From IMG/VR virus record IMGVR_UViG_3300032272_000002, positions 1 through 64,000 of that record: 64,000 nt of DNA, one strand, 5' to 3'. The position numbers were made by a program, and so were the translations under genes. Positions 3,611 to 59,272 of this stretch are shown one piece after another (position 1 is the first letter of the stretch; every line of letters starts with the position of its first letter). This stretch comes from a virus. Below the pieces are notes generated by a model. The model was given only the letters and a program-made list of their open reading frames with translations, was not told the DNA's origin and did not search any database.

Positions 3611-3868
3611 ATGACCTCATCAACTAAAATTAAATACGTTGTCCTTGTAGACATCAAAGACAATAAGATTAGAAGCTCCAAGTTAGATTTCGATGGCGAA
3701 GTCGAAGAGACCGTGCAAGCCATGATTAACGGCTTGAAAAAGCCGTTATATGCTTTTGTGCGTGAACGTCTCATTGAGCCTCGCCAACCTGGCTCAGCTC
3801 AGGTCCGCATCCTTGTTCAATTCCGCGAGAGGACCAACGGCAGATCTATTGAGTTCTCAGTCCAATAA
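3611..3868 (+). CDS. hypothetical protein, probably leaderless
   Basis: TTGACA...TATACT promoter ending a few nt before the ATG. Confidence 0.6.
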   Translation: MTSSTKIKYVVLVDIKDNKIRSSKLDFDGEVEETVQAMINGLKKPLYAFVRERLIEPRQPGSAQVRILVQFRERTNGRSIEFSVQ

Positions 3869-4118
3869 TCCCGATGCTATTCGGGCAAAAGAAGAGAGGG
3901 CTTATCGACAGGCTTTTGCTGGGCTAGCAAATATCTATCGTCAAGAGACGCAAGAGATGCCTGAATATAGGATTAAGAATCTCGTAAAGAAAACACTGGC
4001 CGAGGGGATGTACTCACACCAAGAAGGCCAGACACGTACTTACCCCAAGGATATTAGTGTTTACCTGGATACCGGAGAGGATCCAGAAGACAACTTTGAA
4101 TTAGGAGGGGCGTTATGA
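3750..4118 (+). CDS. hypothetical protein with C-terminal FELGGAL tag (true start probably downstream)
   Basis: Ends EDNFELGGAL*. Confidence 0.7.
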   Translation: MLLCVNVSLSLANLAQLRSASLFNSARGPTADLLSSQSNNPDAIRAKEERAYRQAFAGLANIYRQETQEMPEYRIKNLVKKTLAEGMYSHQEGQTRTYPKDISVYLDTGEDPEDNFELGGAL

Positions 4119-4405
4119 ATTCGCCAGAAGAGCGTAAAGCTGCCGCCATCGAGCGGCATAAAAAAGAACAAGAAGAACGCCAAGCTCAGTTGGCTAGCGA
4201 CTTTAATGCGTTTAGAGCATTGGCTGAAATCGTAACAGAGCGAGAGCCAGAGATGAAACCTTTGGGAATCAAGAATGTTACACGTATCACCGATCAAGAT
4301 GCCGGGGATCGTCGTCAAGCGATTGCAGATGATCGTGAACGGGTTAAGCAATCTCAATGGAGAACAGAGCTAGAGCGGCCATTCGAGCTGGGCGGTGCCC
4401 TATGA
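4115..4405 (+). CDS. hypothetical protein with FELGGAL tag
   Basis: Ends RPFELGGAL*; ATGA coupling. Confidence 0.75.
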   Translation: MNSPEERKAAAIERHKKEQEERQAQLASDFNAFRALAEIVTEREPEMKPLGIKNVTRITDQDAGDRRQAIADDRERVKQSQWRTELERPFELGGAL

Positions 4406-4593
4406 GCATGTCGTACGACGAACTGGATGGAAACTTTGATCCTAACGCTTATAAGCAGATTAAAGACATGCTGCAAAAAGAAAAGGAAGAAGCTCTGCTT
4501 CGGCAGGCTGACAAGCTTGCCGCACTAGAGCGTGCGTTGATGATTTCTGAAGCGGAGGATACTGACGACTTCGAGATTGGAGGAGCCCTGTAA
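4402..4593 (+). CDS. hypothetical protein with FEIGGAL tag
   Basis: Ends DDFEIGGAL*. Confidence 0.75.
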   Translation: MSMSYDELDGNFDPNAYKQIKDMLQKEKEEALLRQADKLAALERALMISEAEDTDDFEIGGAL

Positions 4594-4799
4594 TGGGAGA
4601 TTACACTGGTGGGATTGGTGAATTCTTAGGTGTGCTGCCGACTAAGAAACAACGCGAAGCTGCCAATATGATCCAACGCTACGAGGAACTAAAGATAGAA
4701 ATGCGTGTTTTGCAAGACAAGATGTATAGAATGGGCCTGATTGATGACGACGAACGCAAGCGTGCCGAGGACGAGTTCGAGATTGGAGGGGCACTATAA
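4593..4799 (+). CDS. hypothetical protein with FEIGGAL tag
   Basis: Ends DEFEIGGAL*; TAATG coupling. Confidence 0.75.
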   Translation: MGDYTGGIGEFLGVLPTKKQREAANMIQRYEELKIEMRVLQDKMYRMGLIDDDERKRAEDEFEIGGAL

Positions 4800-5107
4800 T
4801 GGGATGGTTGAATAAAAAGCCACGCGGCAAGAGGCCGCCTGCTCCCCCGGCCCCGCCGAACCCCTATTCCGCAAGCGGCTCTATTAGTTTTGGTGGAGGG
4901 AATAGTTTTGCGTGCAGCGGCGTTATTACCACACAGCCGCTTCGCGTGACGCCGCAGACCCCAGAAGAGATCCGAGCTGAACGGCTGGCGGAATACAATA
5001 TGCTAAAATCACAGCTTCAACGCATGGAGCGAGATCTTATTGAGGATGGCATCCTCAAGGATCAACGAGACGAGAGTGAAGAGTTCGAATTACGAGGAAG
5101 CCTTTAA
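4799..5107 (+). CDS. hypothetical protein with FELRGSL tag variant
   Basis: Ends EEFELRGSL*. Confidence 0.7.
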   Translation: MGWLNKKPRGKRPPAPPAPPNPYSASGSISFGGGNSFACSGVITTQPLRVTPQTPEEIRAERLAEYNMLKSQLQRMERDLIEDGILKDQRDESEEFELRGSL

Positions 5108-5280
5108 ATTAAAGGGCACCCCTATAAATCCTGGCTAAACTGCCCCCATTAGTGTATTGTCCTATATGAAGGGCACACGCTGCTTAGAATGCAAAAAAGG
5201 TGAATACCAGGAGACCAAGATCTTTGATTCCTGGGATAGTCTATTACACTGCACGCATTGTGGCCATGAGGTAAAAATTC

Positions 5281-5682
5281 ATGAGTCTGAACGACCTACT
5301 AAAAAAGGCAAAGACAGCGACGACGGAAGCACACAATGAGCTGGACAAATCGCCGGTAAGCGTGCCGAGTTCCGTGAAGGGCGATCTGTCGCCACGGCAC
5401 CTCCAGCCAGCTTCCAAGCTCCGCTATCTGATCGACCTTGAGAAGACTACCTTTACGCCCGAAGAGATTCGTGCGTTGCTACCTGAGTTGCAGGAGTTTG
5501 CCCGTCTCGGTAGTGCCGTGCTGAGCCCCTACCAGGCCGTCCGACAAGAATTGTCGCGACACTTCCCCAATCCCATGGACATGGACGATTGGCTGGATTC
5601 GCCAAACGAAATGCTTGGCGGCAATAGACCTCGCGATATCGACGACGAAGATCTATTAAGTACTTTGCAGGGGCTCCTATAA
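5281..5682 (+). CDS. protein with C-terminal Xre/MbcA/ParS antitoxin-like (DUF2384) domain
   Basis: WLDSPNEMLGGNRPRDI fits the WLxxPNxxLgGxxP signature. Confidence 0.6.
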   Translation: MSLNDLLKKAKTATTEAHNELDKSPVSVPSSVKGDLSPRHLQPASKLRYLIDLEKTTFTPEEIRALLPELQEFARLGSAVLSPYQAVRQELSRHFPNPMDMDDWLDSPNEMLGGNRPRDIDDEDLLSTLQGLL

Positions 5683-6528: not shown

Positions 6529-6851
6529 TCGTTCTTACAGACAGAGCCGAGCTAGAGCTTGTCAGGATTTCACAGGAGAGTGATCTACCTACTAATAGGG
6601 TCAGAGTAGGGGTGAAAGGAGGCGGCTGTAGTGGATTTAGTTATACACTCGGTTTTGATGATTCGCCTATCGGCGAAACAGATCAGTCGTTCCGTCATGG
6701 TTCGATTGAGCTTGTGTGTGACTCGAAGTCCTTCTTATACCTAAGCGGGATCACGGTTGACTTTGAAACGTCCCTGATGGGACGTGGATTTAAGTTTATC
6801 AATCCAAACGCTAAAAACACTTGCGGGTGTGGGGAATCATTTACAGTATGA
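6525..6851 (+). CDS. iscA: A-type Fe-S carrier protein (IscA/ErpA/HesB family)
   Basis: RVGVKGGGCSGFSY and NPNAKNTCGCGESF signatures. Confidence 0.93.
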   Translation: MIVLTDRAELELVRISQESDLPTNRVRVGVKGGGCSGFSYTLGFDDSPIGETDQSFRHGSIELVCDSKSFLYLSGITVDFETSLMGRGFKFINPNAKNTCGCGESFTV

Positions 6852-7075
6852 GTCAGAAGTACAGACGACTCACCTATCGGCGAAACAGATCAATCGTTCC
6901 CTCATGGCTCAAGCGAGCCAAGAAGGCTCGCAGCAATAAAATCACGTTCGCTCAGCAGGTTGCAGAGCAACAAGTTATTGATGAGGAACGTGACAAAGTA
7001 GAAAAGAAACAACGCGAAGTGGAAATACGCAAAAGCGTATGGACTGATAATTTCGAAATCGGTGGGGCCTTATAA
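6848..7075 (+). CDS. hypothetical protein with FEIGGAL tag
   Basis: Ends DNFEIGGAL*. Confidence 0.75.
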   Translation: MSQKYRRLTYRRNRSIVPSWLKRAKKARSNKITFAQQVAEQQVIDEERDKVEKKQREVEIRKSVWTDNFEIGGAL

Positions 7076-7099
7076 ACCCCGTATATCTAGGAGGATATA

Positions 7100-7375: not shown

Positions 7376-7378
7376 AGT

Positions 7379-20959: not shown

Positions 20960-21166
20960 CTAAAGTATACCCTCTAATTCGAAGGCTGCTTCCTTTCTTG
21001 CGATTTCTTTGTCCACAAGAGGTATAAGCCTTTGCACCTCTTCGGTCCAGTGCCTCAGCCTGTTTATCGCCCAGTGAGTGTCCATATACTGGACAGCGGT
21101 GCGACGGTACTCTTCCGCTCGTGACTTCTCAGCCACCGCGTGGCGATATTGCTCGGTGATAGTCAT
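20960..21166 (-). CDS. hypothetical protein with FELEGIL tag variant
   Basis: Ends AAFELEGIL*; the only tagged gene on the minus strand. Confidence 0.65.
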   Translation of the reverse strand: MTITEQYRHAVAEKSRAEEYRRTAVQYMDTHWAINRLRHWTEEVQRLIPLVDKEIARKEAAFELEGIL

Positions 21167-22067
21167 GATCTCGGTCCCAGCTTCAAGCTTAGCAGGGTCT
21201 GGCACGTCGGGCAAGTCTTGATGCCCTTTTCCTGTGGCACTTGGTGCCCCTTGGGGCATTCGATAGCGATGACTACTCTCATGCTGTTATTATAACGCTC
21301 TCCGAGCGTTTGTCAACTCAAAAATCCCAACCAATGGCCAGAAATTTCTTCCAGAAACAGATTTTGAGACTCATGGAATATTTGCAGGCAACAATTTCAA
21401 TACCCACTTTTTCTATGCCAGTGTCTCGCCACCAGATCCAGGGAATTAGACGGTCGATTTTCATATCATATGTATAACCTTGAGCGTAGCGAAATGCAAG
21501 CTAGAAATAGAAGAAATATATACCACACATAGGACGGCGTGTACTCGCTCGTGTGCGAAGATCGCGGCGGCCAACGTGGCTAAGCCACGCACTAAAAACT
21601 ATCGTGCAGCATAGGGCCGTATGGCCCCGCTGGTCAGTCTGCTAGCGACGTTGAATCGCGACATTCTTTCCGGTCGCGTACGCTGCTTTGCCTAGGTCGG
21701 TGTTGTGGCCGGAAAGCCCGTACACTTGGCCCTTGTACTCGATGGCCCCAGGGAGCTTCCTAGGGTCGTTCTCGGGCATCGGAACGTCGATGTAGTCCCC
21801 GAAGAAACCCGTGTACTCGGCCAGAACGGGAATTGCGTTGGCGATTGCTTTTGCTTTCATGCTAGTATAATACCGCACTAGGCTAGAAATGCAAGGACAA
21901 AATAAAAAGGCCCGCCAGGAATATTTCACCTTGACGGGCCTACCGGCGGGATTGGGCGTTGACCCGTGTACCCTAACAGAGCCCGGCGTACGACCGCTCT
22001 CCGTGTATTGTACCGAACCCATAGGGCCGGGTGCTCCCCGCTTGCGTCGATACGTGCTCTCGTTGTT

Positions 22068-28898: not shown

Positions 28899-29138
28899 GT
28901 GAAAGACTATATAACAGGCACGGTGATTTGTGCTAGTCGGGGCGGTTGGTATGTCAGTATTCAGGCTTTAAGAATAACACATGAAGTACAAGGGACTCAT
29001 GCTGATGCTCTTTTTGCTGCAAAATGCATACTCACGGGTGCGGGATACAATAAATTTAAACCATCAATTGGCGTGAACGGTAGAACACCCTTTGAAGCAT
29101 GGCGGCCTCACACGTTTGAACTAGAAGGTGCCCTCTGA
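28899..29138 (+). CDS. hypothetical protein with FELEGAL tag
   Basis: Ends HTFELEGAL*. Confidence 0.7.
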   Translation: MKDYITGTVICASRGGWYVSIQALRITHEVQGTHADALFAAKCILTGAGYNKFKPSIGVNGRTPFEAWRPHTFELEGAL

Positions 29139-29395
29139 TGTTTATTGAAATCGAAGTCGATTGGCACGGTGCAGTTGTGCCCGAGCAGTACACACCCGAT
29201 CCCAGGGTTATCTGCATAAATATTAATGCTATCGAGGAGTTCTATTACCACAAGACTAAGGACGGCAGGCACTATACGCTTGTAGCATCGAGACGCAGCG
29301 AAGATTCGTTTTGGTACTCGACAGAGACGTATGATTCAATTCGCGAGAAGATCACTCAAGTACGAGACAAGTTTCGCTTGACAGGGCCGCTCTAG
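29138..29395 (+). CDS. hypothetical protein with FRLTGPL tag variant
   Basis: Ends DKFRLTGPL*. Confidence 0.7.
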   Translation: MFIEIEVDWHGAVVPEQYTPDPRVICININAIEEFYYHKTKDGRHYTLVASRRSEDSFWYSTETYDSIREKITQVRDKFRLTGPL

Positions 29396-30075
29396 AAAGA
29401 TATACTAAGGCATGAGTAATATTTATATCGGAGCACGTACTGAAACGGATGATGGCCCTGGCGAGGTCGTTGACGTTTTCCAGAAGAAAGACGAATTGTT
29501 TGCCGAAGTGCGGCTGGATAGCGGTCCCCGCATCTTCATGGCCATCGAACGCACGCAATTCCCCGCAGAAGCCGAAGAAGAAGAAACCTCCCTATGATGC
29601 AGAATTTTCTTATGACACTGTGTTTCGTGGTTATTTTAATCGCGAGCAACCTCATACTCTTGAGGACAGCACTTGGTATCATACAAAAGAGCATCATGTT
29701 GCGATTAGTCGTAGCGAAGAAATCTCAACTGATTGGCGGCGATGCCGACGAATTCCTGCGTCTAGAGGGCGAAATTAGAGCTTATGAACGAATCCTCAAA
29801 GAAGGCCCTGCAAGCCCTCGCTGACGCCCACTGTCAGATATTTCTGAACAACGCAATAGCGGTGGCCGACGCGGTTCTTGAGGATGCGAAGAAACGCAGC
29901 CTACACGCACCCACTGTCGAATATTACAGAGGGCAGAAACTAATTGCCGAACAAATCCTCCTCATCCTGGACGGGAAAGAACTTCCTGACGATGGTTTCT
30001 TGAACGCTGTCATTGACAAGGGCAAGCTCAAGGTGTATGATGAAGATGGAGAACGGATAGAACTGGTCTTTGGCG

Positions 30076-30354
30076 ATGACGTTGACTGAAATACAAAAAA
30101 GAAAAATGCATGCCATCATCAACAAATCAATGCAGATGCATGTAGACAGCATTCCGGATGGCAAGTGGAAGACCGCCAAACGAGAAGAGGTTGATATTGT
30201 AGATATGGAGAATGGCCATCTTCGTAATACAATGAATATGCTGAAACGCAAGAAGCTAGATAAGCACAGGAAATACGCCGAGCTAGAAGAAGAGGCGAAG
30301 GCTAGGGGATGGACGCTTGACGCGGACGAATTCTTACTTGAGGGCGGACTATGA
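30076..30354 (+). CDS. hypothetical protein with FLLEGGL tag variant
   Basis: Ends DEFLLEGGL*. Confidence 0.7.
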   Translation: MTLTEIQKRKMHAIINKSMQMHVDSIPDGKWKTAKREEVDIVDMENGHLRNTMNMLKRKKLDKHRKYAELEEEAKARGWTLDADEFLLEGGL

Positions 30355-30560
30355 ACCCTGACGATATTTACCAGCACAACATCAAATTCGACATCGAATA
30401 TCTAGCCAACAGCATGGGCAAGAGTGAGATCTGGGATGCGACGTTGAAAGAATACGAAAGAATCCTAAACGCTGCCCCTCGACAATCTGCCCAAATCTTT
30501 GTAGAAGAAGAACCAACCAACGTGCTCGATGAGCCGTTCGAGCTAGGTGGAGCACTATAA
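30351..30560 (+). CDS. hypothetical protein with FELGGAL tag
   Basis: Ends EPFELGGAL*. Confidence 0.75.
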   Translation: MNPDDIYQHNIKFDIEYLANSMGKSEIWDATLKEYERILNAAPRQSAQIFVEEEPTNVLDEPFELGGAL

Positions 30561-31876: not shown

Positions 31877-33388
31877 ATGAGCAAGCAAGAACTTACGGTC
31901 AACGACCAACTCCTCGACAAGTACATCGGTGCTGGCTTCAACGTCATGTTCCACGGCAAGCACGGTGTTGGCAAAACTCACATGGTCCTGGCCGCTTTTG
32001 AGCGGGCCAACCTCAACTTCATGTATTTCTCGGCTGCCACGATGGATCCGTGGATCGACTTCATCGGCGTCCCCCGCGAAATGGAGGATGACAAAGGTGC
32101 GTACCTTGAACTGGTGCGTCCCAAGGCCCTCCGCGACGATACCGTCGAAGCCATCTTCCTGGACGAGTACAACCGTGCCCCCAAGAAGATCCGGAACGCA
32201 GTCATGGAATTGATCCAATTCAAGTCCATTAACGGACATCACTTCCCCAACCTCAAGGTGATCTGGACCGCTGTTAACCCTGACGACGGCAACTACGACA
32301 CCGAAGGCATGGACGACGCCCAGAAGGACCGCTTCCAGGCCCACGTCGAAGTGCCGTTCAAGCCCGACCCCAAGTACTTCGCCCGCAAGTTCGGTGAAGA
32401 CGTGGCTGAGGCTGCCGTCGCATGGTGGAAGGCTCTTTCGCCCGATGTCCAACCGAAGGTCTCTCCTCGCCGCCTGGACTACGCTCTGGAGGCGTACAAC
32501 ATGGGCATCGAGCTTCGTGGTGCGATCCTGCCGAAAGCGGCCAACGTGTCGAAGCTCGTTGAGGATCTCTCCAAGGGTCCTGCGGAACGCCGCTTCAACC
32601 AGCTTTTGAACAGCAAAAAGCGTAAGCCGATGCAGGAGTTTCTGTCGGACGAAAACAACTTTGCTGATCTAGAAAAGGTCATCGCCGGTTCTGATACTGC
32701 TATCGAATTCTGCGTGAGTCTTCTGGCTCCGGAGAAGCAGCAGGTCATGATTACCCGCTACCCCAAGGTCCAGAACTACGTGTTCGCCAACCCTGGCTCG
32801 TTCTGGGATCTGATCGAGCGTGTCTCTCAAGACGGTCAGAACAAAGACATGAAAGATAGGGCGACTGCTATCGTGGATGCCCGCGAACGTCGTCAGCAAG
32901 CCTTCGGTGCCGGTAACGACCCTTTTGCTAGTGAAAAGAAGAACGTCAGCAAGTACAATGCTGATGCTCTTGGTGACTCCATCGAACTGGCCGACAATTT
33001 CTCTGGCCGCAACGTTCATATTGGTGCAACTCGCACCTCTACGGACATCGATCCGCAGACCGTTCTGAATGCACAAACCACTCAGCAACGCATGCCGATT
33101 CTCACGACGGACCTTCCGGATTGTGTGTCGGTCAACATGGAGCAGCACGAAGCAGTTTATGCTCTGCAAATCCTCGACTACATCGCGGCTCGCTCGCAAG
33201 AGACGACCATCACCAAGAGTCCTGATATCGATAGGACTATCAATACTGTGATCCTGGCGATCCAAAATCACTCGCCCAACATCACGGTCAAAGATCTGGC
33301 CGAAGTGGCTCCCTACGTCATGACGAAGATCGTTCCGGTTCTCGTCAACCAAGTACGCCACGGAGAGTTTGTCTTCGGACGGAAGTAA
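31877..33388 (+). CDS. MoxR-like AAA+ ATPase
   Basis: GKHGVGKT, IFLDEYNRA, TAVNP, DRF, VSPRRL. Confidence 0.88.
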   Translation: MSKQELTVNDQLLDKYIGAGFNVMFHGKHGVGKTHMVLAAFERANLNFMYFSAATMDPWIDFIGVPREMEDDKGAYLELVRPKALRDDTVEAIFLDEYNRAPKKIRNAVMELIQFKSINGHHFPNLKVIWTAVNPDDGNYDTEGMDDAQKDRFQAHVEVPFKPDPKYFARKFGEDVAEAAVAWWKALSPDVQPKVSPRRLDYALEAYNMGIELRGAILPKAANVSKLVEDLSKGPAERRFNQLLNSKKRKPMQEFLSDENNFADLEKVIAGSDTAIEFCVSLLAPEKQQVMITRYPKVQNYVFANPGSFWDLIERVSQDGQNKDMKDRATAIVDARERRQQAFGAGNDPFASEKKNVSKYNADALGDSIELADNFSGRNVHIGATRTSTDIDPQTVLNAQTTQQRMPILTTDLPDCVSVNMEQHEAVYALQILDYIAARSQETTITKSPDIDRTINTVILAIQNHSPNITVKDLAEVAPYVMTKIVPVLVNQVRHGEFVFGRK

Positions 33389-33474
33389 GAAAGTCTGAAT
33401 TGGTGACTTGCCTACCACGCTTCGGCGTGGTAGGCTTCATCTGTATTCGAAGGACCTAACCAAAGAACAAAGCA

Positions 33475-34899
33475 ATGGCTACATACGAAGAATTCGAAGA
33501 TATCGCCCCTGGGCTGGAACGCTGGCACGGACTGTTCAGCCAGTTCTGGTCAATGGGTGCTCCCCGCTTCACCAGGAAAATCCCCACGGCAGCCGTGGCC
33601 TTCAATAAGAAGGGTCAATACGCGGAGTTCCTGTTCAATCCGGAATTTTGGGATCAAATGTCCCCGACCGCTCGCGAGTTCATTGTCTGCCACGAATGTC
33701 TGCACGTTCTGTATGAGCACGGACTTCGCATGGTCAACGCTGAGCAGAAGCAGGTTGCCAACCTCGCCATGGACGTGGTAGTAAACCACTCACTAATCGA
33801 CAACTTCGGATTCACCCACGAAGATCTCGACTGCGACGTTCGTTTCGACGATCAACCGGAAGATTCTGAAACAAAAACTCTCGATGAAGTCCTTATCTGG
33901 AAGGACAAAATGTACGAGAAACCGGACGAGATCGCTGACAACGAAACGTTCGAATATTACTATCGCAAGCTCATGGAGCGTGTCGATGAAATGATTAAGA
34001 ATGGAGAAATCTCCACGGACGGCAACGGCATCCCGATCTCCATGCCCGGTAGCGGTAGCGGCTCTCCTCTGGACGAGCAGACGATTGACTCTCACGAATT
34101 CATGGAGGGTGGATCGGGTACGCAGGCCGGTGAGGATGAAGACGAAGATGGAAGCGGCTCAGGCGATTCAGAGGATATCGACGGCGAGCCTGACAAGGGT
34201 CTCGAAGGTCTTGAGCAACTGCCGGATGAAGTCGTCGATGATATGGTTGACGAAATCCGTCGTCAGCTTAATCCTGATGAAAACTCCCAAATGACCAAGG
34301 CCGGTGTCGGTCGCGGTGACAAGGTTTACAAGGTGCGTTTTGCCAAGAAGAAGGCTCTCCAGAAATGGGAAAAGCTAGTTCAAATGTGGACTGCCTCTGG
34401 CGAGGCACCCGACGACGTTTGGACCCGCAAGCACCGTCGTCACCACATGCTTCCGCCTCAATTCATGATGCCCTCCGAGCATGAGGAAGAGACCGAGAAC
34501 GCCAAGGTCAACGTGTGGTTTTTCCAGGACATTTCCGGTTCCTGCACGTCCTACCTGGACGACTTCTACAACGCCGCTCGCACCTTCCCTGAGCACTTCT
34601 TCCAGCTTCGCATGTTCGGCTTTGATACAGGAGTTATCGAGGTCGATCCAAAGAACCCGAATCTCCGGGCTGGCGGCGGCACCTGCTTCCGCTGCATCGA
34701 GGATGCTATTCAGCAGAAAATGAAGACGACCGGCTGCCGCTACCCTGATGCGGTGTTCGTCTTCACTGACGGATGCGGCACAGACGTTTCCCCACAATAC
34801 CCTGACCGCTGGCACTGGTTCCTGGAAGGCCACTACCAGAGCGAGCACAACATCCCGAAGGAAAGTAGTCGCTACCAACTCAAGGACTTTGTGAAATGA
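33475..34899 (+). CDS. metallopeptidase-like plus VWA domain protein (DUF2201-like), MoxR partner
   Basis: HECLH, NLAMDVVVN, MIDAS DISGS, GGGTCF, VFTDG. Confidence 0.85.
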   Translation: MATYEEFEDIAPGLERWHGLFSQFWSMGAPRFTRKIPTAAVAFNKKGQYAEFLFNPEFWDQMSPTAREFIVCHECLHVLYEHGLRMVNAEQKQVANLAMDVVVNHSLIDNFGFTHEDLDCDVRFDDQPEDSETKTLDEVLIWKDKMYEKPDEIADNETFEYYYRKLMERVDEMIKNGEISTDGNGIPISMPGSGSGSPLDEQTIDSHEFMEGGSGTQAGEDEDEDGSGSGDSEDIDGEPDKGLEGLEQLPDEVVDDMVDEIRRQLNPDENSQMTKAGVGRGDKVYKVRFAKKKALQKWEKLVQMWTASGEAPDDVWTRKHRRHHMLPPQFMMPSEHEEETENAKVNVWFFQDISGSCTSYLDDFYNAARTFPEHFFQLRMFGFDTGVIEVDPKNPNLRAGGGTCFRCIEDAIQQKMKTTGCRYPDAVFVFTDGCGTDVSPQYPDRWHWFLEGHYQSEHNIPKESSRYQLKDFVK

Positions 34900-35256: not shown

Positions 35257-35862
35257 GTGATGAATTCGCAAAACGATAAAGTAGACAGATATCTTGGCAG
35301 GGTGTACGAATCCCTGCCGGAAGCTGGCGTACAGTTTGCCCAGATTCCTTGGGCTCTCATATCACTGGCGACCTTTGGCTTGGGCATGTGGACACTGTAC
35401 GGAGGCGGCCCCGAAAGGGGGCTCACGTCGGCCCACGCACTACTCTGGGTTTTCATTGTGCTCGACGGCATCATGCTGTCTATTCTGGCACTAGCGTCCT
35501 TCGGGCACGCCTTTATCTCTGCAAAAGACCCGGTTGCGGGAGATAAGGTCCTATTTACTAGCGAATACAGGTCAAATTGGCTGAGTAAGTTTACTTCCTA
35601 CACTGATGCACCGTTGATGCTTGTTTTAGCAGTCCTGGCGTCCTGGCCAGTAGCTATCTTTGCCCTCTCTCTCCTGCTGGGTGCAGAGTGGATGGGAAAG
35701 TATATCCATAAGAACAACAAGCAGGAACGTCGAAATGAATTGGCAAAAATGGATGAGGCCGAGCTTCACGCACTCTTCGCTACTGATGAAGAGGAAGAGG
35801 CTGTTGGCAGGGATATTGACGATCTGTTGAAAGAATTTGAGAACTTTCAGGGGGATCTCTAA
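35257..35862 (+). CDS. multi-pass membrane protein
   Basis: Three to four hydrophobic helices and an acidic tail. Confidence 0.65.
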   Translation: MMNSQNDKVDRYLGRVYESLPEAGVQFAQIPWALISLATFGLGMWTLYGGGPERGLTSAHALLWVFIVLDGIMLSILALASFGHAFISAKDPVAGDKVLFTSEYRSNWLSKFTSYTDAPLMLVLAVLASWPVAIFALSLLLGAEWMGKYIHKNNKQERRNELAKMDEAELHALFATDEEEEAVGRDIDDLLKEFENFQGDL

Positions 35863-38559: not shown

Positions 38560-38633
38560 GGGCACGTAGCATTGTGGAATGCAGCCGCCTCTAAAACGGT
38601 AAGAAGCGAGTTTGACTCTCGTCGTGCCCTCCA
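38560..38633 (+). tRNA. amber suppressor tRNA (anticodon CTA)
   Basis: GGGCACG/CGTGCCC acceptor, GCAT/ATGC D stem, GCCGC-CTCTAAA-ACGGT, T-CCA. Confidence 0.8.
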
Positions 38634-38673
38634 TTTTCACTTGACAACCACAACCAGCGTGGTAGGGTGTAGT

Positions 38674-38952
38674 ATGCGTTACGTCACAATGGTTGGAGAT
38701 ATCATCTCCGAGCCTTTCGAATCCAAGCATGATAGACTGTGCTTCAAGCTGCGTGACCCCAATGGCTTAGATATTACCTGCTACGCCCCCTTTCAATTGG
38801 CACACCACGTCAGAGAAGGCGACTATATTATGTGCTATGGTAAGATCGTAACGACAGATGATGGTCGCATGATTGTGTCCTTGGAAGCAATACACGAAGA
38901 AGATAGACCAGTGCCCGAGCCCAACACGTTCGAGTTAGGTGGAGCCCTGTGA
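38674..38952 (+). CDS. OB-fold-like small protein with FELGGAL tag
   Basis: Beta-strand pattern (VREGDYIMCYGKI); ends NTFELGGAL*. Confidence 0.7.
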   Translation: MRYVTMVGDIISEPFESKHDRLCFKLRDPNGLDITCYAPFQLAHHVREGDYIMCYGKIVTTDDGRMIVSLEAIHEEDRPVPEPNTFELGGAL

Positions 38953-39227
38953 CAATTGGATATGTAGAAGGGCCAGTAATGTCAATAAGTTTTGGAATTG
39001 ATTATGTTGAATTTGACGTTCGTGCCATTGGGCAATTTAGCAACGCAGCTAAGCGAGTACGCTGTATCGCCCCCATTAATTTTAAAAGCGTTATAAAATT
39101 GAACAATGAAGTCAGCATCAGCGGCACAGTAGAACATGAGGACACGCCGAGCGGAGTTTTCTCACGTATTAGAGTCACCCGCGTTGAACGAGTGACTAAT
39201 GAATTTCTGCTCAGCGGAGCATTGTAG
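38949..39227 (+). CDS. OB-fold-like small protein with FLLSGAL tag
   Basis: EVSISGTVE...RIRVTRVE; ends NEFLLSGAL*. Confidence 0.7.
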   Translation: MTIGYVEGPVMSISFGIDYVEFDVRAIGQFSNAAKRVRCIAPINFKSVIKLNNEVSISGTVEHEDTPSGVFSRIRVTRVERVTNEFLLSGAL

Positions 39228-44617: not shown

Positions 44618-44692
44618 GGTTCGCTGGTGTAGAGGTCTGCACATCGGTCTGAAAAGCCGAGGGTCAAGGTTCGATACCTTGGTGAACCACCA
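44618..44692 (+). tRNA. tRNA-Phe(GAA)
   Basis: TCGGT-CTGAAAA-GCCGA; CCA. Confidence 0.9.
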
Positions 44693-44694
44693 AA

Positions 44695-44769
44695 GGGGGC
44701 GTAGTGATAACGGTAGCACTCCTGCTTTGCAAGTAGGGAGTCGGGGTTCGATTCCCCGCGTCTCCACCA
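44695..44769 (+). tRNA. tRNA-Ala(TGC)
   Basis: CCTGC-TTTGCAA-GTAGG; G3:U70; CCA. Confidence 0.92.
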
Positions 44770-44774
44770 ATTCA

Positions 44775-45002
44775 ATGAATGATACAGTAGAAATTTGGCC
44801 AGTCAAGAGTCCTATAGACGAGTCACGGAACGGACCAAACGCTAAGCAATATTATGCTGTATATTTAACGGGCTCAAACAAGTGGCTCCATCCTCATCCC
44901 AACGAATTCCTCGAAGGGAATATGTATCTTTTCAATTCTGAGAATGAGGCAGAAGAAGCAATTGCAGCCTACTTCGGTAACGGATTATGGGGTGCATTAT
45001 AG
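44775..45002 (+). CDS. hypothetical protein with NGLWGAL tag variant
   Basis: Ends GNGLWGAL*. Confidence 0.65.
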   Translation: MNDTVEIWPVKSPIDESRNGPNAKQYYAVYLTGSNKWLHPHPNEFLEGNMYLFNSENEAEEAIAAYFGNGLWGAL

Positions 45003-45220: not shown

Positions 45221-47149
45221 ATGAAACTGAACAAGAAAACTGGCAACGTGGCGAAATCGGGCGATCTGGGCGAGCAGACTTTTAGTGTGGCTGCAACCGC
45301 TCATGCGTTCGAAATCCTTTCGTCTCGTCTCTACACCGATACCAAGCTCGCCATCGTGCGTGAGCTTTCAACCAACGCTGCCGATGCCCACGTCGATGCT
45401 GGCTGCCCCGACAAGCCTTTTGACGTGCATCTACCCTCGTATAGCCAATCTTATTTTGAGATTCGTGACTACGGCACCGGGCTGTCACACGACGATGCAA
45501 TGACGGTCTACACGACCTTCTTCGATTCCACCAGGAATGACTCGGACGACTTCACAGGTGCCCTCGGTCTCGGCTCCAAGTCGCCATTCGCGTACACTGA
45601 CGCATTCCTGGTGACCTCCTACTTCAATGGAACGGTGCGGGCCTATTCGGCATTCCGCAATGAGGCTGGCCTGCCCAGCTTCGCCCTCATGAGTGAGGCG
45701 ACTACGAACGAGCCGAACGGTCTCAAAATTCGTATCGATATTCAAACTGAGGATCGCTACGACTTCCAAGATGCTGCCAACAAGGTTTATCCTTGGTTCA
45801 ATACGGTTCCCAACTTTGTTGGCGGTGAAACGCTGTCAATTCAAGATAGGAATACTATCCTGAGCGGGAAAGGCTGGGACATCTGCAAGGGTAGTTATAG
45901 CAATGCTATTCGCGTCGTCATGGGTAACGTGTCGTATACTTGTTCTGCTGATAAGTTTACTCATACCCTGGGGAGTTACGGTGCTCTGACGCTGTTCGTG
46001 CCTATTGGTGAGTGCGGCATTGCGGCCAACCGTGAAGAACTGCACTACGACAATAAGACTCTGCAAAACATCCAGCTTCGTATCGACGACGCGATGAAAG
46101 ACGCTCAGGATCTCATGGAGGCAGAGCTTGAAAGCTCGCCAACGCTCCTCCAGCGAATTCGTGATGGTCGAAGGTTTAAAGAGATCATGAATATTCGTGG
46201 TCTTGGTGATTCAATCGAGGGGAATCAGAAAGACGCTTACAGCATCAGTAACCTGCGGGTCACGGGCTCTAAGCTCTTCATTCGACGCGATACCTATAGT
46301 GCCAGGGTTTATCCTCAGCACGATACAGTTTATACATTCATTGAGAATGATGTGGCTGATATCAAGCAGAAGCACAGGAACGCTCTCCGCTATTGGATTG
46401 ATAACCAGCCGAAGTCCAACTTTTACCTGGCAGATATTACGAGCCCCACGGTTTTCGCTGATACTTTTGGTGCTATCACCATCAAGCTGTCGGAGATTCC
46501 TGCTCCTCCTCGTAAGCAATCCACAGGAACGGCTGGCGGCCCGCGATGCTCTATCAAGCGTCTCACGTCGTCCTATCGGAAGATGGACGCCTGGCTGAAT
46601 ACTGAGACTGACGACGTGGATCCTGCAATGTCGATTGCGGTTCGTCGCAAGAGCTATAACGTGATCTTTAATGATGTCGAAATGGAGCCGAGTATTGCCT
46701 TGGAAATTGCCAAGAGCCTTGGTTTCAAAACTGTTTACGGTCTGCCGTCGTCTCGCTACGACAAGCCTCGCAATGAGCTTGGTCTCAAAGATCTGGAAAC
46801 AGAAGCAAAAAAGGCGATGCTCAAGCTCAAACTGAAAGGCACCGTCGCCCAGCACGCCTCGCTCCAGTATAACGCTGGTAACTACTCCTACGAGTTTGAC
46901 AAAGAATACTTGGATACCCTCGAAGGGCACGGCGAAGTCTGCGACAACGTTGTAGAGTTTCTCCGGAGTAAAGTGCCTGCTGCCTGGACTCGTCTACTTA
47001 GTATGTGGGAAATTGAAATCCCCAAGGTAGATGATCCCATCGTAGCTTTTTGGGAGAAGTATCCTCTCCTCAGGGGCGTGGAAAGCAACGGCAGCATTCC
47101 TAGTAACGAAATTCAAGAGTATATCAAGTGGAAGAACCTAAATTCCTAA
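45221..47149 (+). CDS. rIIA: rIIA-like protein (N-terminal GHKL ATPase)
   Basis: ILSSRLY, VRELSTNAADAH, IRDYGTGL, GALGLGSKSPFAYTD, REELHY. Confidence 0.85.
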   Translation: MKLNKKTGNVAKSGDLGEQTFSVAATAHAFEILSSRLYTDTKLAIVRELSTNAADAHVDAGCPDKPFDVHLPSYSQSYFEIRDYGTGLSHDDAMTVYTTFFDSTRNDSDDFTGALGLGSKSPFAYTDAFLVTSYFNGTVRAYSAFRNEAGLPSFALMSEATTNEPNGLKIRIDIQTEDRYDFQDAANKVYPWFNTVPNFVGGETLSIQDRNTILSGKGWDICKGSYSNAIRVVMGNVSYTCSADKFTHTLGSYGALTLFVPIGECGIAANREELHYDNKTLQNIQLRIDDAMKDAQDLMEAELESSPTLLQRIRDGRRFKEIMNIRGLGDSIEGNQKDAYSISNLRVTGSKLFIRRDTYSARVYPQHDTVYTFIENDVADIKQKHRNALRYWIDNQPKSNFYLADITSPTVFADTFGAITIKLSEIPAPPRKQSTGTAGGPRCSIKRLTSSYRKMDAWLNTETDDVDPAMSIAVRRKSYNVIFNDVEMEPSIALEIAKSLGFKTVYGLPSSRYDKPRNELGLKDLETEAKKAMLKLKLKGTVAQHASLQYNAGNYSYEFDKEYLDTLEGHGEVCDNVVEFLRSKVPAAWTRLLSMWEIEIPKVDDPIVAFWEKYPLLRGVESNGSIPSNEIQEYIKWKNLNS

Positions 47150-47355
47150 TTAGTGATCTCGGCATCGTGATCTTCTCGGTGGCTGGGGAGACCTTCCAGG
47201 TCGGCCCTGGCCACCAGTATCATCAGACAATTCTGGAAGCCGTCAAGAACGACAAGTGGGCAGAGATCCTGCCGCTCGTCCCCGAGCTTCCTAAGAAAAT
47301 GAAGGTACATATCGGCATCTATCTAGACACCTTCGACCTTGGTGGAGCCCTGTGA
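47128..47355 (+). CDS. rIIB N-terminal-like mini-protein with FDLGGAL tag
   Basis: Follows rIIA; HQYHQTILEAVKNDKW; ends DTFDLGGAL*. Confidence 0.6.
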   Translation: MEEPKFLISDLGIVIFSVAGETFQVGPGHQYHQTILEAVKNDKWAEILPLVPELPKKMKVHIGIYLDTFDLGGAL

Positions 47356-47609
47356 TTAATCGCGTATTAGTCTCCAGCGAGGGTGATGCCGTGACGTTGG
47401 CCCGAGCCCTTGCTATGGGGGTTCGGCCTGACTACGTTTTCGAGCGTAATGACAATTGGACTCTGGCCGCCCCCTTCCACCTAGCCAAAGAGGCGGAAGC
47501 CCTGTGGGCTGGACAGTGGGTCAAGATTCGTGAGATAACCGAGGAAGACCTCGAAGGTATCGAGCCAGAGAAGCCCCGCGAACAGTTCAGACTGCGAGGA
47601 GCACTATGA
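47352..47609 (+). CDS. hypothetical protein with FRLRGAL tag
   Basis: Ends EQFRLRGAL*. Confidence 0.7.
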   Translation: MINRVLVSSEGDAVTLARALAMGVRPDYVFERNDNWTLAAPFHLAKEAEALWAGQWVKIREITEEDLEGIEPEKPREQFRLRGAL

Positions 47610-47809
47610 GTTGTAGATTCTGCAATCAGGACGCCACACATAAAATTCCTTTTGAAACACGGGAAGACACCGAGCGGGCAGCTAAATTTATCGCCTTAAG
47701 GCCACGCCCAACGGGCGTGGTCAACCTATGTCCTGCCTGCTACAAGACTTATGGTGATTACATTCGTCAATATTATTCGCCAAGGTTCGAACTTGGTGGT
47801 GCTCTGTAG
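47606..47809 (+). CDS. zinc-finger protein with FELGGAL tag
   Basis: CRFC...CPAC; ends PRFELGGAL*. Confidence 0.7.
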   Translation: MSCRFCNQDATHKIPFETREDTERAAKFIALRPRPTGVVNLCPACYKTYGDYIRQYYSPRFELGGAL

Positions 47810-49975: not shown

Positions 49976-50236
49976 GTGGCAATTTTAGAATATCAAGTAG
50001 CGAGATTCGCAGTAATTAAGCCATGTAATGGCGGTTATGTTGTTATGTGCAATTTGCCGACCGCTGCACTACGTTCTAAATTCAAGGGAGCTAGTGTTGC
50101 CATTCTCAGTGGGCGATCTGGTTGGATTCCTTATAGCAATAGATTCTTGGACGAGTGTACTAAGAAAACAGAAGAAGCAGCAAAAACCCTGCTACGATTT
50201 GGGGCAGACCCATTCGAGCTTGGCGGGGCACTATAG
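49976..50236 (+). CDS. hypothetical protein with FELGGAL tag
   Basis: Ends DPFELGGAL*. Confidence 0.75.
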   Translation: MAILEYQVARFAVIKPCNGGYVVMCNLPTAALRSKFKGASVAILSGRSGWIPYSNRFLDECTKKTEEAAKTLLRFGADPFELGGAL

Positions 50237-50872: not shown

Positions 50873-51112
50873 ATGAACTATAGAAATTTAAGACAAAAGG
50901 CTCGAAATAGCAAGCTGACTCCTGATGAAGAGAAAGAGTATCACTTGCTTAATCAAGAGTATCACAAAGTGACTCGCAAGTGGTTCAAGCGTAACGGTCG
51001 CGAAATGGCACAGGGTTTTTCAAAACTAGAGGCAATCAAAATGCGTCTTGGTATTGTTGAATCTGAGCTTGATCGCGATGATCCCGATTTCAGTCTGGGT
51101 GGAGCACTATGA
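50873..51112 (+). CDS. hypothetical protein with FSLGGAL tag
   Basis: Ends PDFSLGGAL*. Confidence 0.75.
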   Translation: MNYRNLRQKARNSKLTPDEEKEYHLLNQEYHKVTRKWFKRNGREMAQGFSKLEAIKMRLGIVESELDRDDPDFSLGGAL

Positions 51113-52612: not shown

Positions 52613-53287
52613 ATGACTGACTTCCACTACGACGTAAGCCTAGACTACGAAACGGACCACAACTGCTCAGAAAGCGGCTGTGACGACGAGGGGATCTGCC
52701 GTTGCGGCACGATCAGTAACGTTCGCGTCGAAAGAGTCGATTCCTGGGATATCGCTCGACACTATCCGACTGGCGATATCATTCACGACTATGCCGTTGA
52801 GCGTCTGATCTCTCGCTTCCGTACGGACGAATTCGACATCGAAGTAGGTGGCGGATATTACGGAGACGAAATCGATGGCGTCACCCTGACAAATGCCGCT
52901 CAAGATTCAATCCATAAGGCACAGGCCCTTATTACGACTGCCGAACAGGTCGAACACTATCTTGCACTAGAAAACGGCGAAGTGCTGCACAAGCACCGCG
53001 ACCGTCAATGGGAGCATGTCAAGATTCCTATTGACGACGTGATTCCCGGCAAGAACCGTGCTGGACTCGATAAGAAGCAGATTGCTTTCTATCGTGATAA
53101 GTTTAAGTATGATAAAATTACGCCGACTGTTCTCTGTGAAAAGAAAGGACATGATAAATACGTGCTGATCGATGGCTACCACCGCTATCACGCGGCTTTG
53201 GAAGCCAACAAGAAAAAGATCGACGTTATCTTCTTCGTGTCGGACGCGAGGAAAGTGGCCGACTTCGAGTTGGGCGGTGCTCTTTGA
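52613..53287 (+). CDS. ParB/sulfiredoxin-like domain protein with FELGGAL tag
   Basis: YVLIDGYHRYHAA; Cys-rich N-terminus; ends ADFELGGAL*. Confidence 0.75.
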   Translation: MTDFHYDVSLDYETDHNCSESGCDDEGICRCGTISNVRVERVDSWDIARHYPTGDIIHDYAVERLISRFRTDEFDIEVGGGYYGDEIDGVTLTNAAQDSIHKAQALITTAEQVEHYLALENGEVLHKHRDRQWEHVKIPIDDVIPGKNRAGLDKKQIAFYRDKFKYDKITPTVLCEKKGHDKYVLIDGYHRYHAALEANKKKIDVIFFVSDARKVADFELGGAL

Positions 53288-53601
53288 GCGGGATTTGGTG
53301 TCCAATGGCAGGTAAAATACTAGGAACCGAAGTGCGTGACCCAGAGTTTATGGATGCTGAGGGTATCGTACGCATTCGTGAAAAATCTAATTGCGAATGG
53401 GTTATGACGCGAAGCGGATATTGGGGCATGGCCTGGGTCACTGGCAGTATTGCTGTCAAGTGGGTCAAGGCTGGTCGTCACGCATCAAAATTTGAAAATG
53501 CTGGACGTGCCATTGCCATCTGTTCATATTTTGGCTGGGAATATATGATTGAACCGTTCGACCACATGGCTGACACTCTAGAATTGGGCGGTGCCCTATG
53601 A
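53284..53601 (+). CDS. hypothetical protein with LELGGAL tag
   Basis: Ends DTLELGGAL*. Confidence 0.7.
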   Translation: MSGIWCPMAGKILGTEVRDPEFMDAEGIVRIREKSNCEWVMTRSGYWGMAWVTGSIAVKWVKAGRHASKFENAGRAIAICSYFGWEYMIEPFDHMADTLELGGAL

Positions 53602-55175: not shown

Positions 55176-55409
55176 ATGTGCAAAGACTGCAAAGAAATCG
55201 AAGGTCATGTTGTGGCAAATAAAGGTTATATCTATATTTGTGCATGCAGTCACCGTATTGGATGGGACGTGCAAGATTTTCCCAATTGGAATTCTAAGTA
55301 TAACAAGCGTTCTTTCATGGTGTGCCACGGTTGCAAAAATGTACGCTATACGTTGCGTCAGCATTATACGCAACTGAGCAAACACTTCATTTTAGGAGGA
55401 GCCCTGTAA
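55176..55409 (+). CDS. Cys-rich protein with FILGGAL tag
   Basis: CKDC, CAC, CHGC; ends KHFILGGAL*. Confidence 0.7.
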   Translation: MCKDCKEIEGHVVANKGYIYICACSHRIGWDVQDFPNWNSKYNKRSFMVCHGCKNVRYTLRQHYTQLSKHFILGGAL

Positions 55410-55609: not shown

Positions 55610-55641
55610 CATGCTGCTTGCAGCACGTTAGCATAGAACAT

Positions 55642-55726: not shown

Positions 55727-55737
55727 CTAACATTATC

Positions 55738-56205: not shown

Positions 56206-56207
56206 AT

Positions 56208-56284
56208 GCGGGGTTGACGGAACTGGTATACGTGTCTGACTTAGAATCAGGATTTTGGGGGTTCGAATCCCCCACCCCGTACCA
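56208..56284 (+). tRNA. tRNA-Leu(TAG) lacking the long variable arm
   Basis: TCTGA-CTTAGAA-TCAGG; short variable loop; CCA. Confidence 0.85.
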
Positions 56285-56290
56285 AACATT

Positions 56291-56740
56291 ATGAGCTTTC
56301 GAATTAAACACAAACCGACCGGACTGTTCTATCGTCCTTCTCGCACCGTGAAGAACAAAGATAGGTCCGCTTACGTGAAGTCCAATTTATCAGATAAGGG
56401 TAAGAGCTACCATACGTCGCCATCGCTGGGGTGGATCGGTGGCAGGATTTATACGCACTTGCATACTGATGCAAAAAGCAAGTATATCGATGCCCCTCTG
56501 ACGGATTGGGAGATCATTGATGATGAAGCCCCGAAACGGCCCGAGGGTCTCTCGGACGATGAGTATGCGATGCGAACGGGGACTGAGGCTTACCTTAAGC
56601 TGTTGGTCGAACGTGCTGATGAAATTACCAAACTCCATGACGAGGAGCACGCTAGGCGTGTCATGGGTGAAATTTTCCGTTACGGAGTAGAGGTGGTCGA
56701 TCAGGCCCGAGCAAACTTTGAACTCGGTGGAGCACTATGA
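56291..56740 (+). CDS. hypothetical protein with FELGGAL tag
   Basis: Ends ANFELGGAL*. Confidence 0.75.
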   Translation: MSFRIKHKPTGLFYRPSRTVKNKDRSAYVKSNLSDKGKSYHTSPSLGWIGGRIYTHLHTDAKSKYIDAPLTDWEIIDDEAPKRPEGLSDDEYAMRTGTEAYLKLLVERADEITKLHDEEHARRVMGEIFRYGVEVVDQARANFELGGAL

Positions 56741-57195: not shown

Positions 57196-57217
57196 GCCGC
57201 TTGACAAAACAGTGTGA

Positions 57218-57291
57218 CGGGATATAGTGTAAAGGCAGCACATGAGGGTCATAACCTCCTAGTCACGGTTCGAGTCCGTGTATCCCTACCA
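57218..57291 (+). tRNA. tRNA with CAT anticodon (Met or Ile2)
   Basis: GAGG-GTCATAA-CCTC; CCA. Confidence 0.8.
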
Positions 57292-57306
57292 ACCTAACTA
57301 ATTACC

Positions 57307-57555
57307 ATGATTGCAATTTACTTCCTTCTGGCCCTCCTATCTATTGGGGTAGGTTTCCTGGTCTGGCGTGCCCTCATGCGAAGCCCCAAGACCGATAAAT
57401 TTTTTGATCTCTCCTTGCGTGGCGAGGAAGATGCTGATATGATTCTACGTCGGCGTAAGAACGCTAACAAGGATCTCAAGACCCGAGGGCGTACCTTGGG
57501 TAAACGCGAACGTTTCCTTCAATCCGAAATTCAAAAACTAAAAGACAATGAGTAA
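57307..57555 (+). CDS. small membrane protein upstream of SPFH
   Basis: N-terminal TM helix and coiled coil. Confidence 0.65.
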   Translation: MIAIYFLLALLSIGVGFLVWRALMRSPKTDKFFDLSLRGEEDADMILRRRKNANKDLKTRGRTLGKRERFLQSEIQKLKDNE

Positions 57556-58801
57556 TCGATCCATTATCGCAGCCGTTGCGGCAGGCTTTGTCCTCCTCAT
57601 CGGCATCATCGCCGGCTTCACAGTCGTCGGACACAACAATGACCAGAACTGGCAAGTCGTCCAGTCGCCGGGCGGCGAGATTTCTCTTCGAGATCAAGCC
57701 GGTTGGTATAACAAGGGCTTCTCCAACGTCACCACGTATCCGCGTGCCCACCAATTTCCGTGGGGTCCGATTCGTGTGACTTTCAACGATGGCGGCACCG
57801 CCGAAGTGAGCGGCACGATGCGTATGCGTACGCCGACCACCGAAGATGCTCGTCGTCTATTCCACCGTGAATTCAGTGCTGACGAAACACTCCGCAATGC
57901 CGAGCGGGCCGTCAGTTCTCACCTTATCAACACGGTCAAAGTGACCGGCCCCGTCATGAGCGGTTCCGAGCACCAGTCCGCCCGTAAAGGCGAGTTCTAC
58001 AACCTCGTTCGTTCGCAGCTTGAAGATGGCCTGTATCAGACTCGCAAAGTCGAGCGTGAGCTTTTCGACCAAACCGACGAGAACGGCCAGCCGATTACTG
58101 TGTTCGCTACCGAGATTGTTCTTGGCGAAAACGGTCAGCCACTCATTGCAGAAATGTCGCCTCTCAGTCAGTATGATTTTGAGATCGCTCAATTCTCCAT
58201 CGAGGGCACGGAATATGATGCCAAAACCCTTGAGCTTTTCGCTTCTAAGAAAGAGTCGCTCCTGAACGCTGAGCAGTCGAAAGCTCAACGTCAAGAGCAG
58301 GTTCAAGAACGTCTGATGATCGTGGAGCGTGGCCTCAAAGAGAAGACCGAGATCGAAGCTCAGGCCAACAAAGAGAAGGCCCGCCTTACGATTGAAGGCG
58401 AAACGCGAGTTGCGGTTGCCAACCAGGCTGCCCTCCAGGCTGTCCAACTCAAGCAAGAGCAGACTACGCAGGCTGAGGCTCGTCGTGATATTGCCGCACT
58501 TAATCTAGAGGCCGAACGCCTCAATGCGGAAGCCGTGATGGTGGCCGCTCAGGCCGAAGAGGTACGCATTACGCAGGCCGGTGCTATTACCGAGGAAGCC
58601 CGTGTGCTCGCTGAGATCGACCGTGATGCTCGCATCGGCGTGGCCCACGAAATGGCTCAGATCAATGTCCCTGGCTTCATGATTACCGGAGGAGGATCCT
58701 CCGGAGGTAGTGGCCTGGAGCAACTGCTTAATGTCTTCATGATGCGTCAGATGGGAGTGTTCGATCCGAGTGACTTTGCTACGCCGAACAGCGAAGAGTA
58801 G
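57548..58801 (+). CDS. SPFH (band 7/flotillin-like) protein
   Basis: N-terminal TM, SPFH-like core, long Ala/Glu/Gln coiled coil, C-terminal VP..GG. Confidence 0.8.
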   Translation: MSNRSIIAAVAAGFVLLIGIIAGFTVVGHNNDQNWQVVQSPGGEISLRDQAGWYNKGFSNVTTYPRAHQFPWGPIRVTFNDGGTAEVSGTMRMRTPTTEDARRLFHREFSADETLRNAERAVSSHLINTVKVTGPVMSGSEHQSARKGEFYNLVRSQLEDGLYQTRKVERELFDQTDENGQPITVFATEIVLGENGQPLIAEMSPLSQYDFEIAQFSIEGTEYDAKTLELFASKKESLLNAEQSKAQRQEQVQERLMIVERGLKEKTEIEAQANKEKARLTIEGETRVAVANQAALQAVQLKQEQTTQAEARRDIAALNLEAERLNAEAVMVAAQAEEVRITQAGAITEEARVLAEIDRDARIGVAHEMAQINVPGFMITGGGSSGGSGLEQLLNVFMMRQMGVFDPSDFATPNSEE

Positions 58802-58873
58802 TCAGCCTCACGGCTGAAAGAAATGCAGGGAGTCGCTTGACAAGGGCGGCTCCCTGTGGTAGTATATAGAGCC

Positions 58874-59272
58874 ATGAATACCCAACAATACGTCGAATAC
58901 TTCTATCCGGGCCTCATGTTCGCTGAGTCTAGCTCTCAGAAGGTGGAAACCCGTGATCCTGCCGCAATTGCCTCAAAACTCCCTGAGGGAGCTTACTGCT
59001 TCCGCTTCATGGAACGCACGGAAGGCGAAATCGACGGCGAGGCTGTTAATGGCAAATTCAAGAATCACTCTGGCAACTACTTCCCGGCTGGCTCCGTCAA
59101 AATGAGCCTAGCCGAAGTAAAGCGAGAAATGCCTAATGAGGAGATCCTGATTTCCAACATGGAAGGCAACAAGATCCCGCATGTCGTGAAAACCGTCCGA
59201 GGCAATATTGTGGCCTTTAACGACGGTGACAAGATGATCGATGATTCGAATGCCCTCGAAGGGGCACTATAG
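58874..59272 (+). CDS. hypothetical protein with NALEGAL tag variant
   Basis: Ends DSNALEGAL*. Confidence 0.7.
   Translation: MNTQQYVEYFYPGLMFAESSSQKVETRDPAAIASKLPEGAYCFRFMERTEGEIDGEAVNGKFKNHSGNYFPAGSVKMSLAEVKREMPNEEILISNMEGNKIPHVVKTVRGNIVAFNDGDKMIDDSNALEGAL

Follow-up and report, generated by a model that had tools for sequence, protein, structure and literature searches.

A C-terminal peptide shared by small accessory proteins of an uncultured tailed phage is a likely docking handle

Why should many otherwise unrelated proteins of a single phage end in nearly the same seven residues? The question is raised by the first 64,000 nucleotides, here called the window, of the 169,742-bp viral record IMGVR_UViG_3300032272_000002 from an uncultured tailed phage, in which 26 open reading frames (ORFs) had been noted, from the DNA letters alone, to end in variants of F-E-L-G-G-A-L. 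All 26 endings of this original prediction were confirmed at their coordinates, and eight further tagged ORFs were located beyond the window (stops at 64541, 67805, 71865 and 73470, and on the minus strand at 100389, 111089, 111496 and 111879), giving 34 tagged ORFs in the full record among about 238 called genes (14%, about one in seven). The phage was compared with relatives that include G001-G013, G016-G018, G021, L168-L172 and L193.

The tag proved to be tied to the ends of genes. In six-frame translation of the full record the strict motif F-x-L-x-G-A-L was directly followed by a stop in 22 of 22 occurrences, [LI][GE]GAL was found 21 times at a terminus versus once internally with 0.95 terminal occurrences expected, and F[ED]LGGAL was found 11 times at a terminus versus never internally. 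The strict motif occurred once in 1.07 Mb of seven relatives, away from any stop. A degenerate DNA pattern of the tag gave 29 matches and the reversed control none. The information at the three codon positions within the tag was 1.16, 1.52 and 0.35 bits, compared with 0.13 bits upstream and 0.10 bits downstream, and the flanking DNA was without conservation. All six Leu codons are in use at position -5 and likewise at -1, and the 34 tags end with TGA (18), TAA (9) or TAG (7), in agreement with the proposal that codons and stops vary freely while selection acts on the peptide. In 20 orthologue pairs the five core tag residues were identical in 94 of 100 cases, whereas the same codon was used at only 61 of 116 identical residues (53%), amino-acid conservation thus exceeding nucleotide conservation. 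These results establish that the tag is real and under peptide-level selection.

The residual codon bias consists of an excess of GGA at -3 and of CTA at -1 and a near absence of GGC at -3. The scarcity of GGC before Ala is the result of GCGC avoidance, which partly explains the bias, and the mild GGA/CTA excess may help to couple the tagged gene to the one after it, given that 21 of the 34 tags overlap a start. The tetranucleotide GCGC is absent from the 170 kb of the phage genome, occurs zero or one time in each of the close family genomes listed above, and is found 56-103 times per locus in the most distant capsid relatives (L024, L026 and L028); the shortage is a family-wide avoidance of an HhaI-type site.

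The profile of 70 tags pooled from the phage and its relatives, read from -7 to -1, was F60, E33, L63, G30, G69, A60 and L70, with an acidic residue at -9 in about half. Leu at -1 was invariant as originally described (34 of 34 in the phage, 70 of 70 pooled); Gly at -3 was not, being replaced by Ser in one pooled tag. The tag is strictly terminal in all 34 proteins of the phage and in 37 of 41 in relatives, and the remaining four carry one residue beyond -1. A free C-terminus is therefore preferred, as had been supposed, but the Leu carboxylate is not strictly needed.

The tagged proteins are small, soluble, lineage-specific accessory proteins. None of 33 small tagged proteins was predicted to span a membrane, and in seven relatives without this tag a homologue was found for only 1 of 33 tagged small genes, versus 48 of 94 of the untagged ones (p 2e-7). 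The genes are spread over 108 kb, with 29 in plus-strand accessory and metabolic regions, one in a minus-strand block at 13-27 kb and four among the glycosyltransferases. The structural block occupies about 126-170 kb, and none of its 33 genes at 126.5-169.7 kb, the capsid gene among them, is tagged, which supports the claim that the tag is missing from core enzymes and structural genes. The bodies are mostly unrelated, again as claimed, except that those ending at 30354 and 31458 may be distant paralogues, each weakly matching the same protein of relative G001 (direct comparison E 0.12). Searches of the tagged bodies against Pfam, PHROGs, PADLOC, NCBIfam and Atlas returned almost nothing beyond a ParB-like protein and weak OB and Mtd_N leads.

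The tag is an addition that related bodies may lack. The tagged ParB-like protein of 224 residues (52613-53287) has 110 distant homologues and all are untagged. An untagged orthologue in G009 of the minus-strand gene at 20960-21259 (E 4.7e-20) has its stop at the point at which a tag would start. The rIIB-like gene is full length (281-337 residues) and untagged in four relatives, and is shortened and tagged in the phage (47128-47355, an N-terminal remnant of 75 residues), its sister phage and L193. Untagged homologues thus exist in other phages, a point that the original prediction had proposed to check. At 45221-47355 an rIIA-like gene precedes the rIIB remnant of the phage; in the two lineages with this tag, where the locus was seen, the conserved domain of rIIB has been lost or has degenerated.

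Three close relatives together hold 38 tags in 62 kb, comprising the sister phage, recovered via the ParB-like protein and seen over 33.5 kb (16 tags), and two contigs with 7 and 15 tags recovered via the vWA gene described below. L193, a distant family member with core genes 30-53% identical that was seen over 17 kb, carries three tags in which -6 or -4 is basic; in two of these a single residue follows Leu. In 16 other family genomes or fragments, read whole, no common terminal peptide was found, and a search of viral and metagenome contigs with degenerate DNA patterns yielded single matches only and no multi-tag locus. Apparent tags in G008 (L053) and G005 (L173) were rejected as promoter-like DNA repeats with TTGAC and TATAAT-like boxes that overlap several gene ends, and those in G002 and G012 as paralogues or low-complexity repeats; G012 contains large low-complexity heptad-like repeat arrays that produce many repetitive ORFs.

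G001 provides the most telling comparison. Its capsid protein is 92% identical to that of the phage, yet it encodes no F-x-L-x-G-A-L tag; a scan with flexible rather than fixed offsets from the stop revealed instead K-G-[RKQ]-R-W-I, set 2-11 residues before the end of 11 small proteins with largely unrelated bodies, and with free wobble positions. The sites lie at 94.2-96.2 kb (L037:14222-16221) and at 14256, 25896 and 151484; the motif was not found in the other genomes of that scan, with one further match in fragment G020. Two of the 11 proteins are flanked by the same genes as the phage proteins ending at 100389 and 111089, with body alignments of E 2e-5 and 3e-6 in a small database. One more of the 11 is a homologue of the family of the protein ending at 30354 (30070-30354), which has tagged orthologues in L170 and L172, the L170 orthologue aligning with the G001 protein at E 1e-5. 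The G009 gene at the 111089 position has neither tag. The occurrence of the same bodies with one tag, the other tag or none is the strongest sign of an exchangeable handle set by a lineage-specific partner. Based on this swap, the distribution in relatives and the untagged orthologues, the tag is a modular, lineage-specific handle on accessory proteins.

These features are best explained if the tail is a short linear docking motif on small soluble lineage-specific proteins, by which one shared partner would grip all of them and which would change as that partner changes between phage lineages. The conserved alternate positions -7, -5, -3 and -1 would fit an extended strand lying in a groove. 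That the tail is a shared docking handle with one reader, as originally suggested, is likely. More tentatively, the reader would be the phage's own MoxR AAA+ and metallopeptidase-vWA machine, with the tagged proteins either its clients or adaptors bringing targets of their own, comparable to the C-terminal tail of SspB that tethers substrates to ClpX; we put this whole explanation, reader included, at roughly 0.4. The original prediction had listed ATPases among the untagged enzymes, and untagged they are, but the best candidate reader is found among them.

The candidate pair occupies 31877-34899 on the plus strand, directly following and adjoining six tagged genes. The first gene (31877-33388) encodes a MoxR-type ATPase that matches Pfam AAA/AAA_3 and has Walker motifs and an extra helical C-terminal half; its predicted model (pLDDT 92.9) most resembled NorQ and CbbQ (Z 16.1 and 15.6; rmsd 3.9 and 3.8; 219 aligned), a MoxR-clade AAA+ fold. 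The second (33475-34899) encodes a protein with an N-terminal DUF2201 HExxH metallopeptidase-like domain and a vWA fold, in which H73, E74, H77, D352, S354, S356, T403 and D432 are invariant in 87 homologues and the MIDAS motif is intact. In known systems vWA domains capture peptides for MoxR and such pairs remodel clients (PMC7159879), NorQ grips the C-terminus of NorD in a manner dependent on the last two residues (PMC13036017), and a MoxR and metallopeptidase-vWA pair is known in group 2.2 jumbo phages, where a role in virion assembly was proposed (PMC7824862). The pair was found in all six tag-bearing genomes, with tags in three of five lineages that have it versus none of nine near-complete genomes without it (Fisher p 0.027; 0.077 when the query genome is left out). 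The MoxR and vWA proteins are 41% and 49% identical to those of G001, a divergence sufficient for co-evolution with the tag. In L193 the MoxR gene is apparently split into ORFs of 362 and 108 residues directly before the vWA gene (L193:4350-5764).

Several observations weigh against this assignment. The association of tag and pair could come from kinship alone, because pair and tags are found mostly in one sub-clade of the exonuclease tree (support 86/88). G003 and G007 encode the pair and have no tag, and for three of the tag-bearing contigs and for L193 the presence of the pair is circular in that they were found via the vWA gene. No convincing tag was detected within 10 kb of 80 more distant MoxR loci, a weak null since the MoxR locus of G001 itself is negative within that distance. 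The net charge of the MoxR and vWA proteins has no shift matching the acidic-to-basic swap of tags. The swap itself is open to question, as orthology of the exchanged pairs depends on synteny and weak similarity, and the G001 motif, lying 2-11 residues from the end, may be read differently. When 124 orthologue pairs were screened for charge reversals, none stood out as a reader, and a complex prediction with a 31-residue tag, the vWA protein, MoxR and Mg scored 0.00, which is neither support nor counter-evidence. An L7/L12-like gene considered as a reader was rejected, being present also in tag-less genomes.

A bolder extension, possible but doubtful, is that the tails form a private addressing system through which dozens of fast-evolving accessory proteins would plug into the MoxR and metallopeptidase-vWA machine, which would remodel or degrade proteins at the expense of ATP, tail and machine being re-keyed together in each lineage, to serve as a platform of modular adaptors with which to take over the host or counter its defences.

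Of the competing explanations, the least unlikely is that a host factor reads the tag, which would then act as a degron for one of the host's proteases, or as a decoy or docking site for an adaptor or defence protein of the host, and would differ as hosts differ. Known destabilising C-termini have non-polar last residues, as are the last five of the tag; carboxylate-reading proteases, however, rarely allow an additional C-terminal residue, and one is tolerated in relatives. Many copies on dispensable proteins would suit titration of a host factor, and no phage gene co-occurs perfectly with the tags. Although ssrA-type tags also end in short apolar motifs, the ssrA or ClpX C-motif 1 degron ends in Leu-Ala-Ala with a free carboxylate (PMC9382460), whereas the tag ends in Gly-Ala-Leu. 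The mark of a PDZ or tail-specific protease ligand would be apolar residues placed strictly at the terminus, and the tag is so placed in 34 of 34 phage proteins and in 37 of 41 in relatives. Furthermore, related phages sharing GCGC avoidance, a hint of related hosts, carry chemically opposite tags.

Slightly less probable still is a reader elsewhere in the phage proteome. One possibility is the ClpP encoded at 120884-120267 of the genome, the gene for which is intact and divergent (42% to G001) but is also present in the tag-less genomes checked. Another is the 200-residue hydrophobic, probably membrane protein encoded 3' of the vWA gene (35260-35862, plus strand), found in five of six tag-bearing genomes and in none of the tag-less genomes examined, but missing from the 17 kb of L193 that were seen and without a known family.

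That the tag is a place for cleavage or modification, for instance by the HExxH domain, would involve the same gene pair and appears improbable. Its hydrophobic-x-small-A-L end resembles the spacing of FxSxx-COOH precursors, and small variable proteins with a conserved C-terminal peptide stand beside a zincin-like gene in vWA-MoxR systems (PMC7159879). [quoted passage not shown] The ubiquitin-like conjugation first entertained is likewise disfavoured, since ubiquitin-like and Pup termini are Gly(-Gly) or Gly-Gly-Glu/Gln and the tag has no terminal Gly, with Leu at -1 in all 34.

Capsid loading in the manner of an encapsulin cargo peptide, another of the initial options, is less probable again. 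The G-[AS]-L end recalls the GSL motif (PMC7925596), the capsid protein weakly matches the phage G major head protein, and one tagged body (genome 111496-111882, L003:13496-13882, minus) has a stretch weakly resembling Mtd_N and tail-fibre motifs of virions (Atlas score 0.88, a lead only). Yet the encapsulin consensus of hydrophobic-G-hydrophobic-G-S-L with a basic end (PMC7925596) differs from the tag, which is hydrophobic at -7, -5 and -1, carries Ala at -2 in 60 of 70 cases and is flanked by acidic residues; cargo genes in an operon with the shell gene have no counterpart in the untagged structural block; and the G001 capsid, with zero charge reversals relative to that of the phage, coexists with a basic tag.

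Finally, that the motif is a side effect of some signal in the DNA or RNA (a ribosome-binding site with stop/start overlap, a promoter or a recombination site) is very improbable: the tags overlap a downstream start more often than core genes do (21 of 34 versus 43 of 130) and over-use GGA and CTA, but the 11 tags without a downstream start are equally conserved, overlapping core starts have no Shine-Dalgarno enrichment, the GGC scarcity follows from GCGC avoidance, an in-frame stop follows all 26 DNA matches, and the true DNA repeats of G008 and G005 differ in being near-identical DNA with promoter-like boxes.

The remaining tagged ORFs of the window are all on the plus strand. A first cluster comprises 3750-4118 (start uncertain), 4115-4405 (96 residues), 4357-4593 (up to 78), 4593-4799 (68) and 4799-5107 (102), followed by 6821-7075 (up to 84). 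Upstream of MoxR are 28899-29138 (79 residues), 29138-29395 (85), 30351-30560 (69), 31165-31458, with tagged orthologues in three close relatives, and 31389-31772, directly before the MoxR gene. Those at 38572-38952 (true start near 38671; probably the weak OB-fold Pfam match) and 38949-39227 (92 residues) are succeeded by 44679-45002, the degenerate tag of which is unchanged in the sister phage, 47352-47609 (85 residues), 47606-47809 (67 residues, with CxxC pairs), 49976-50236 (up to 86), 50873-51112 (79), 53284-53601 (up to 105), a Cys-rich ORF at 55176-55409 (77), 56255-56740 (start uncertain) and 58856-59272, with a degenerate tag. The ORFs at 5281-5682 and 35260-35862 end in G-x-L with weak tag likeness, the second ending is not kept in relatives, and neither was counted as tagged. 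An amber tRNA with a CUA anticodon, one of 28 tRNAs in the genome, is encoded at 38560-38633 and also in G001 and G003, and was not found in five larger relatives checked. Of the seven tags ended by TAG, those at 47809 and 59272 are in frame with the next gene, such that readthrough could mask or fuse the tag; the coincidence is probably due to chance, as the sister's 47809 orthologue ends in TGA.

No cultured close relative of the phage was found. A related capsid protein (62-93% identity) is encoded on 26 viral contigs. The 158-kb contig L194 in a Hydrogenophaga metagenome-assembled genome has a capsid protein 86% identical, and may reflect wrong binning of a phage instead of pointing to the host. 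Sister-phage orthologues of the genes at 59711-60448 and 62873-63169 match the Pfam anti-defence families Gad2 and Acb5. A protein of 778 residues (genome 153461-155797, L006:3461-5797, minus) is inserted in the head module, matches no Pfam family and has a homologue in one of four relatives checked.

No unexplained part of phage genomes is larger than their small unannotated genes, and the shared tag marks 14% of the genes of this genome as one functional class that is testable by a single peptide pull-down, the swap on orthologous bodies offering at once a control for cross-specificity. Should the reader be the MoxR pair of the phage, a function would be assigned to a widespread pair and an orthogonal tag-and-machine pair would be available for protein targeting.

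Docking through a C-terminal tail common to several proteins is known in principle; the literature searched, which left out most subscription journals, yielded neither a case of such tails on dozens of accessory phage proteins and exchanged from one lineage to another nor a description of such a tag. In phage T4 the clamp-binding C-termini of gp43, gp33 and gp55 on gp45, and in T7 the acidic tails, also place an acidic-then-hydrophobic end on unrelated phage proteins that meet at one hub. Those tails belong to two or three core replication and transcription proteins, whereas here accessory proteins are tagged and core enzymes are not. We know of no lineage-wide tag swap among AAA+ adaptor tails. 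The tail of SspB on ClpX is, like the tag, a short flexible C-terminal tail that tethers a separately folded body to a hub (PMC13251409), although in that system few host adaptors with another sequence are involved in place of 34 phage proteins. Encapsulin cargo peptides likewise are C-terminal addresses with G-small-L on unrelated cargo (PMC7925596), but differ in spacing, charge and gene context, and the capsid here does not change with the tag. The FxSxx-COOH precursors of vWA-MoxR ternary systems are likewise small and fast-evolving, end in a conserved peptide and lie close to MoxR, vWA and HExxH genes (PMC7159879), but one or a few occur in an operon with radical SAM, as opposed to bodies with folds of their own spread over 108 kb. 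The known MoxR/vWA systems serve one dedicated partner or client, with virion assembly proposed for the phage pair, dozens of tagged clients not being described, and the pair here is a candidate reader only. Nevertheless, NorQ-NorD (PMC13036017), CbbQ-CbbO and the jumbo-phage pair (PMC7824862) have the same fold and gene pair as found here, and are known to capture peptides and to dock by C-termini.

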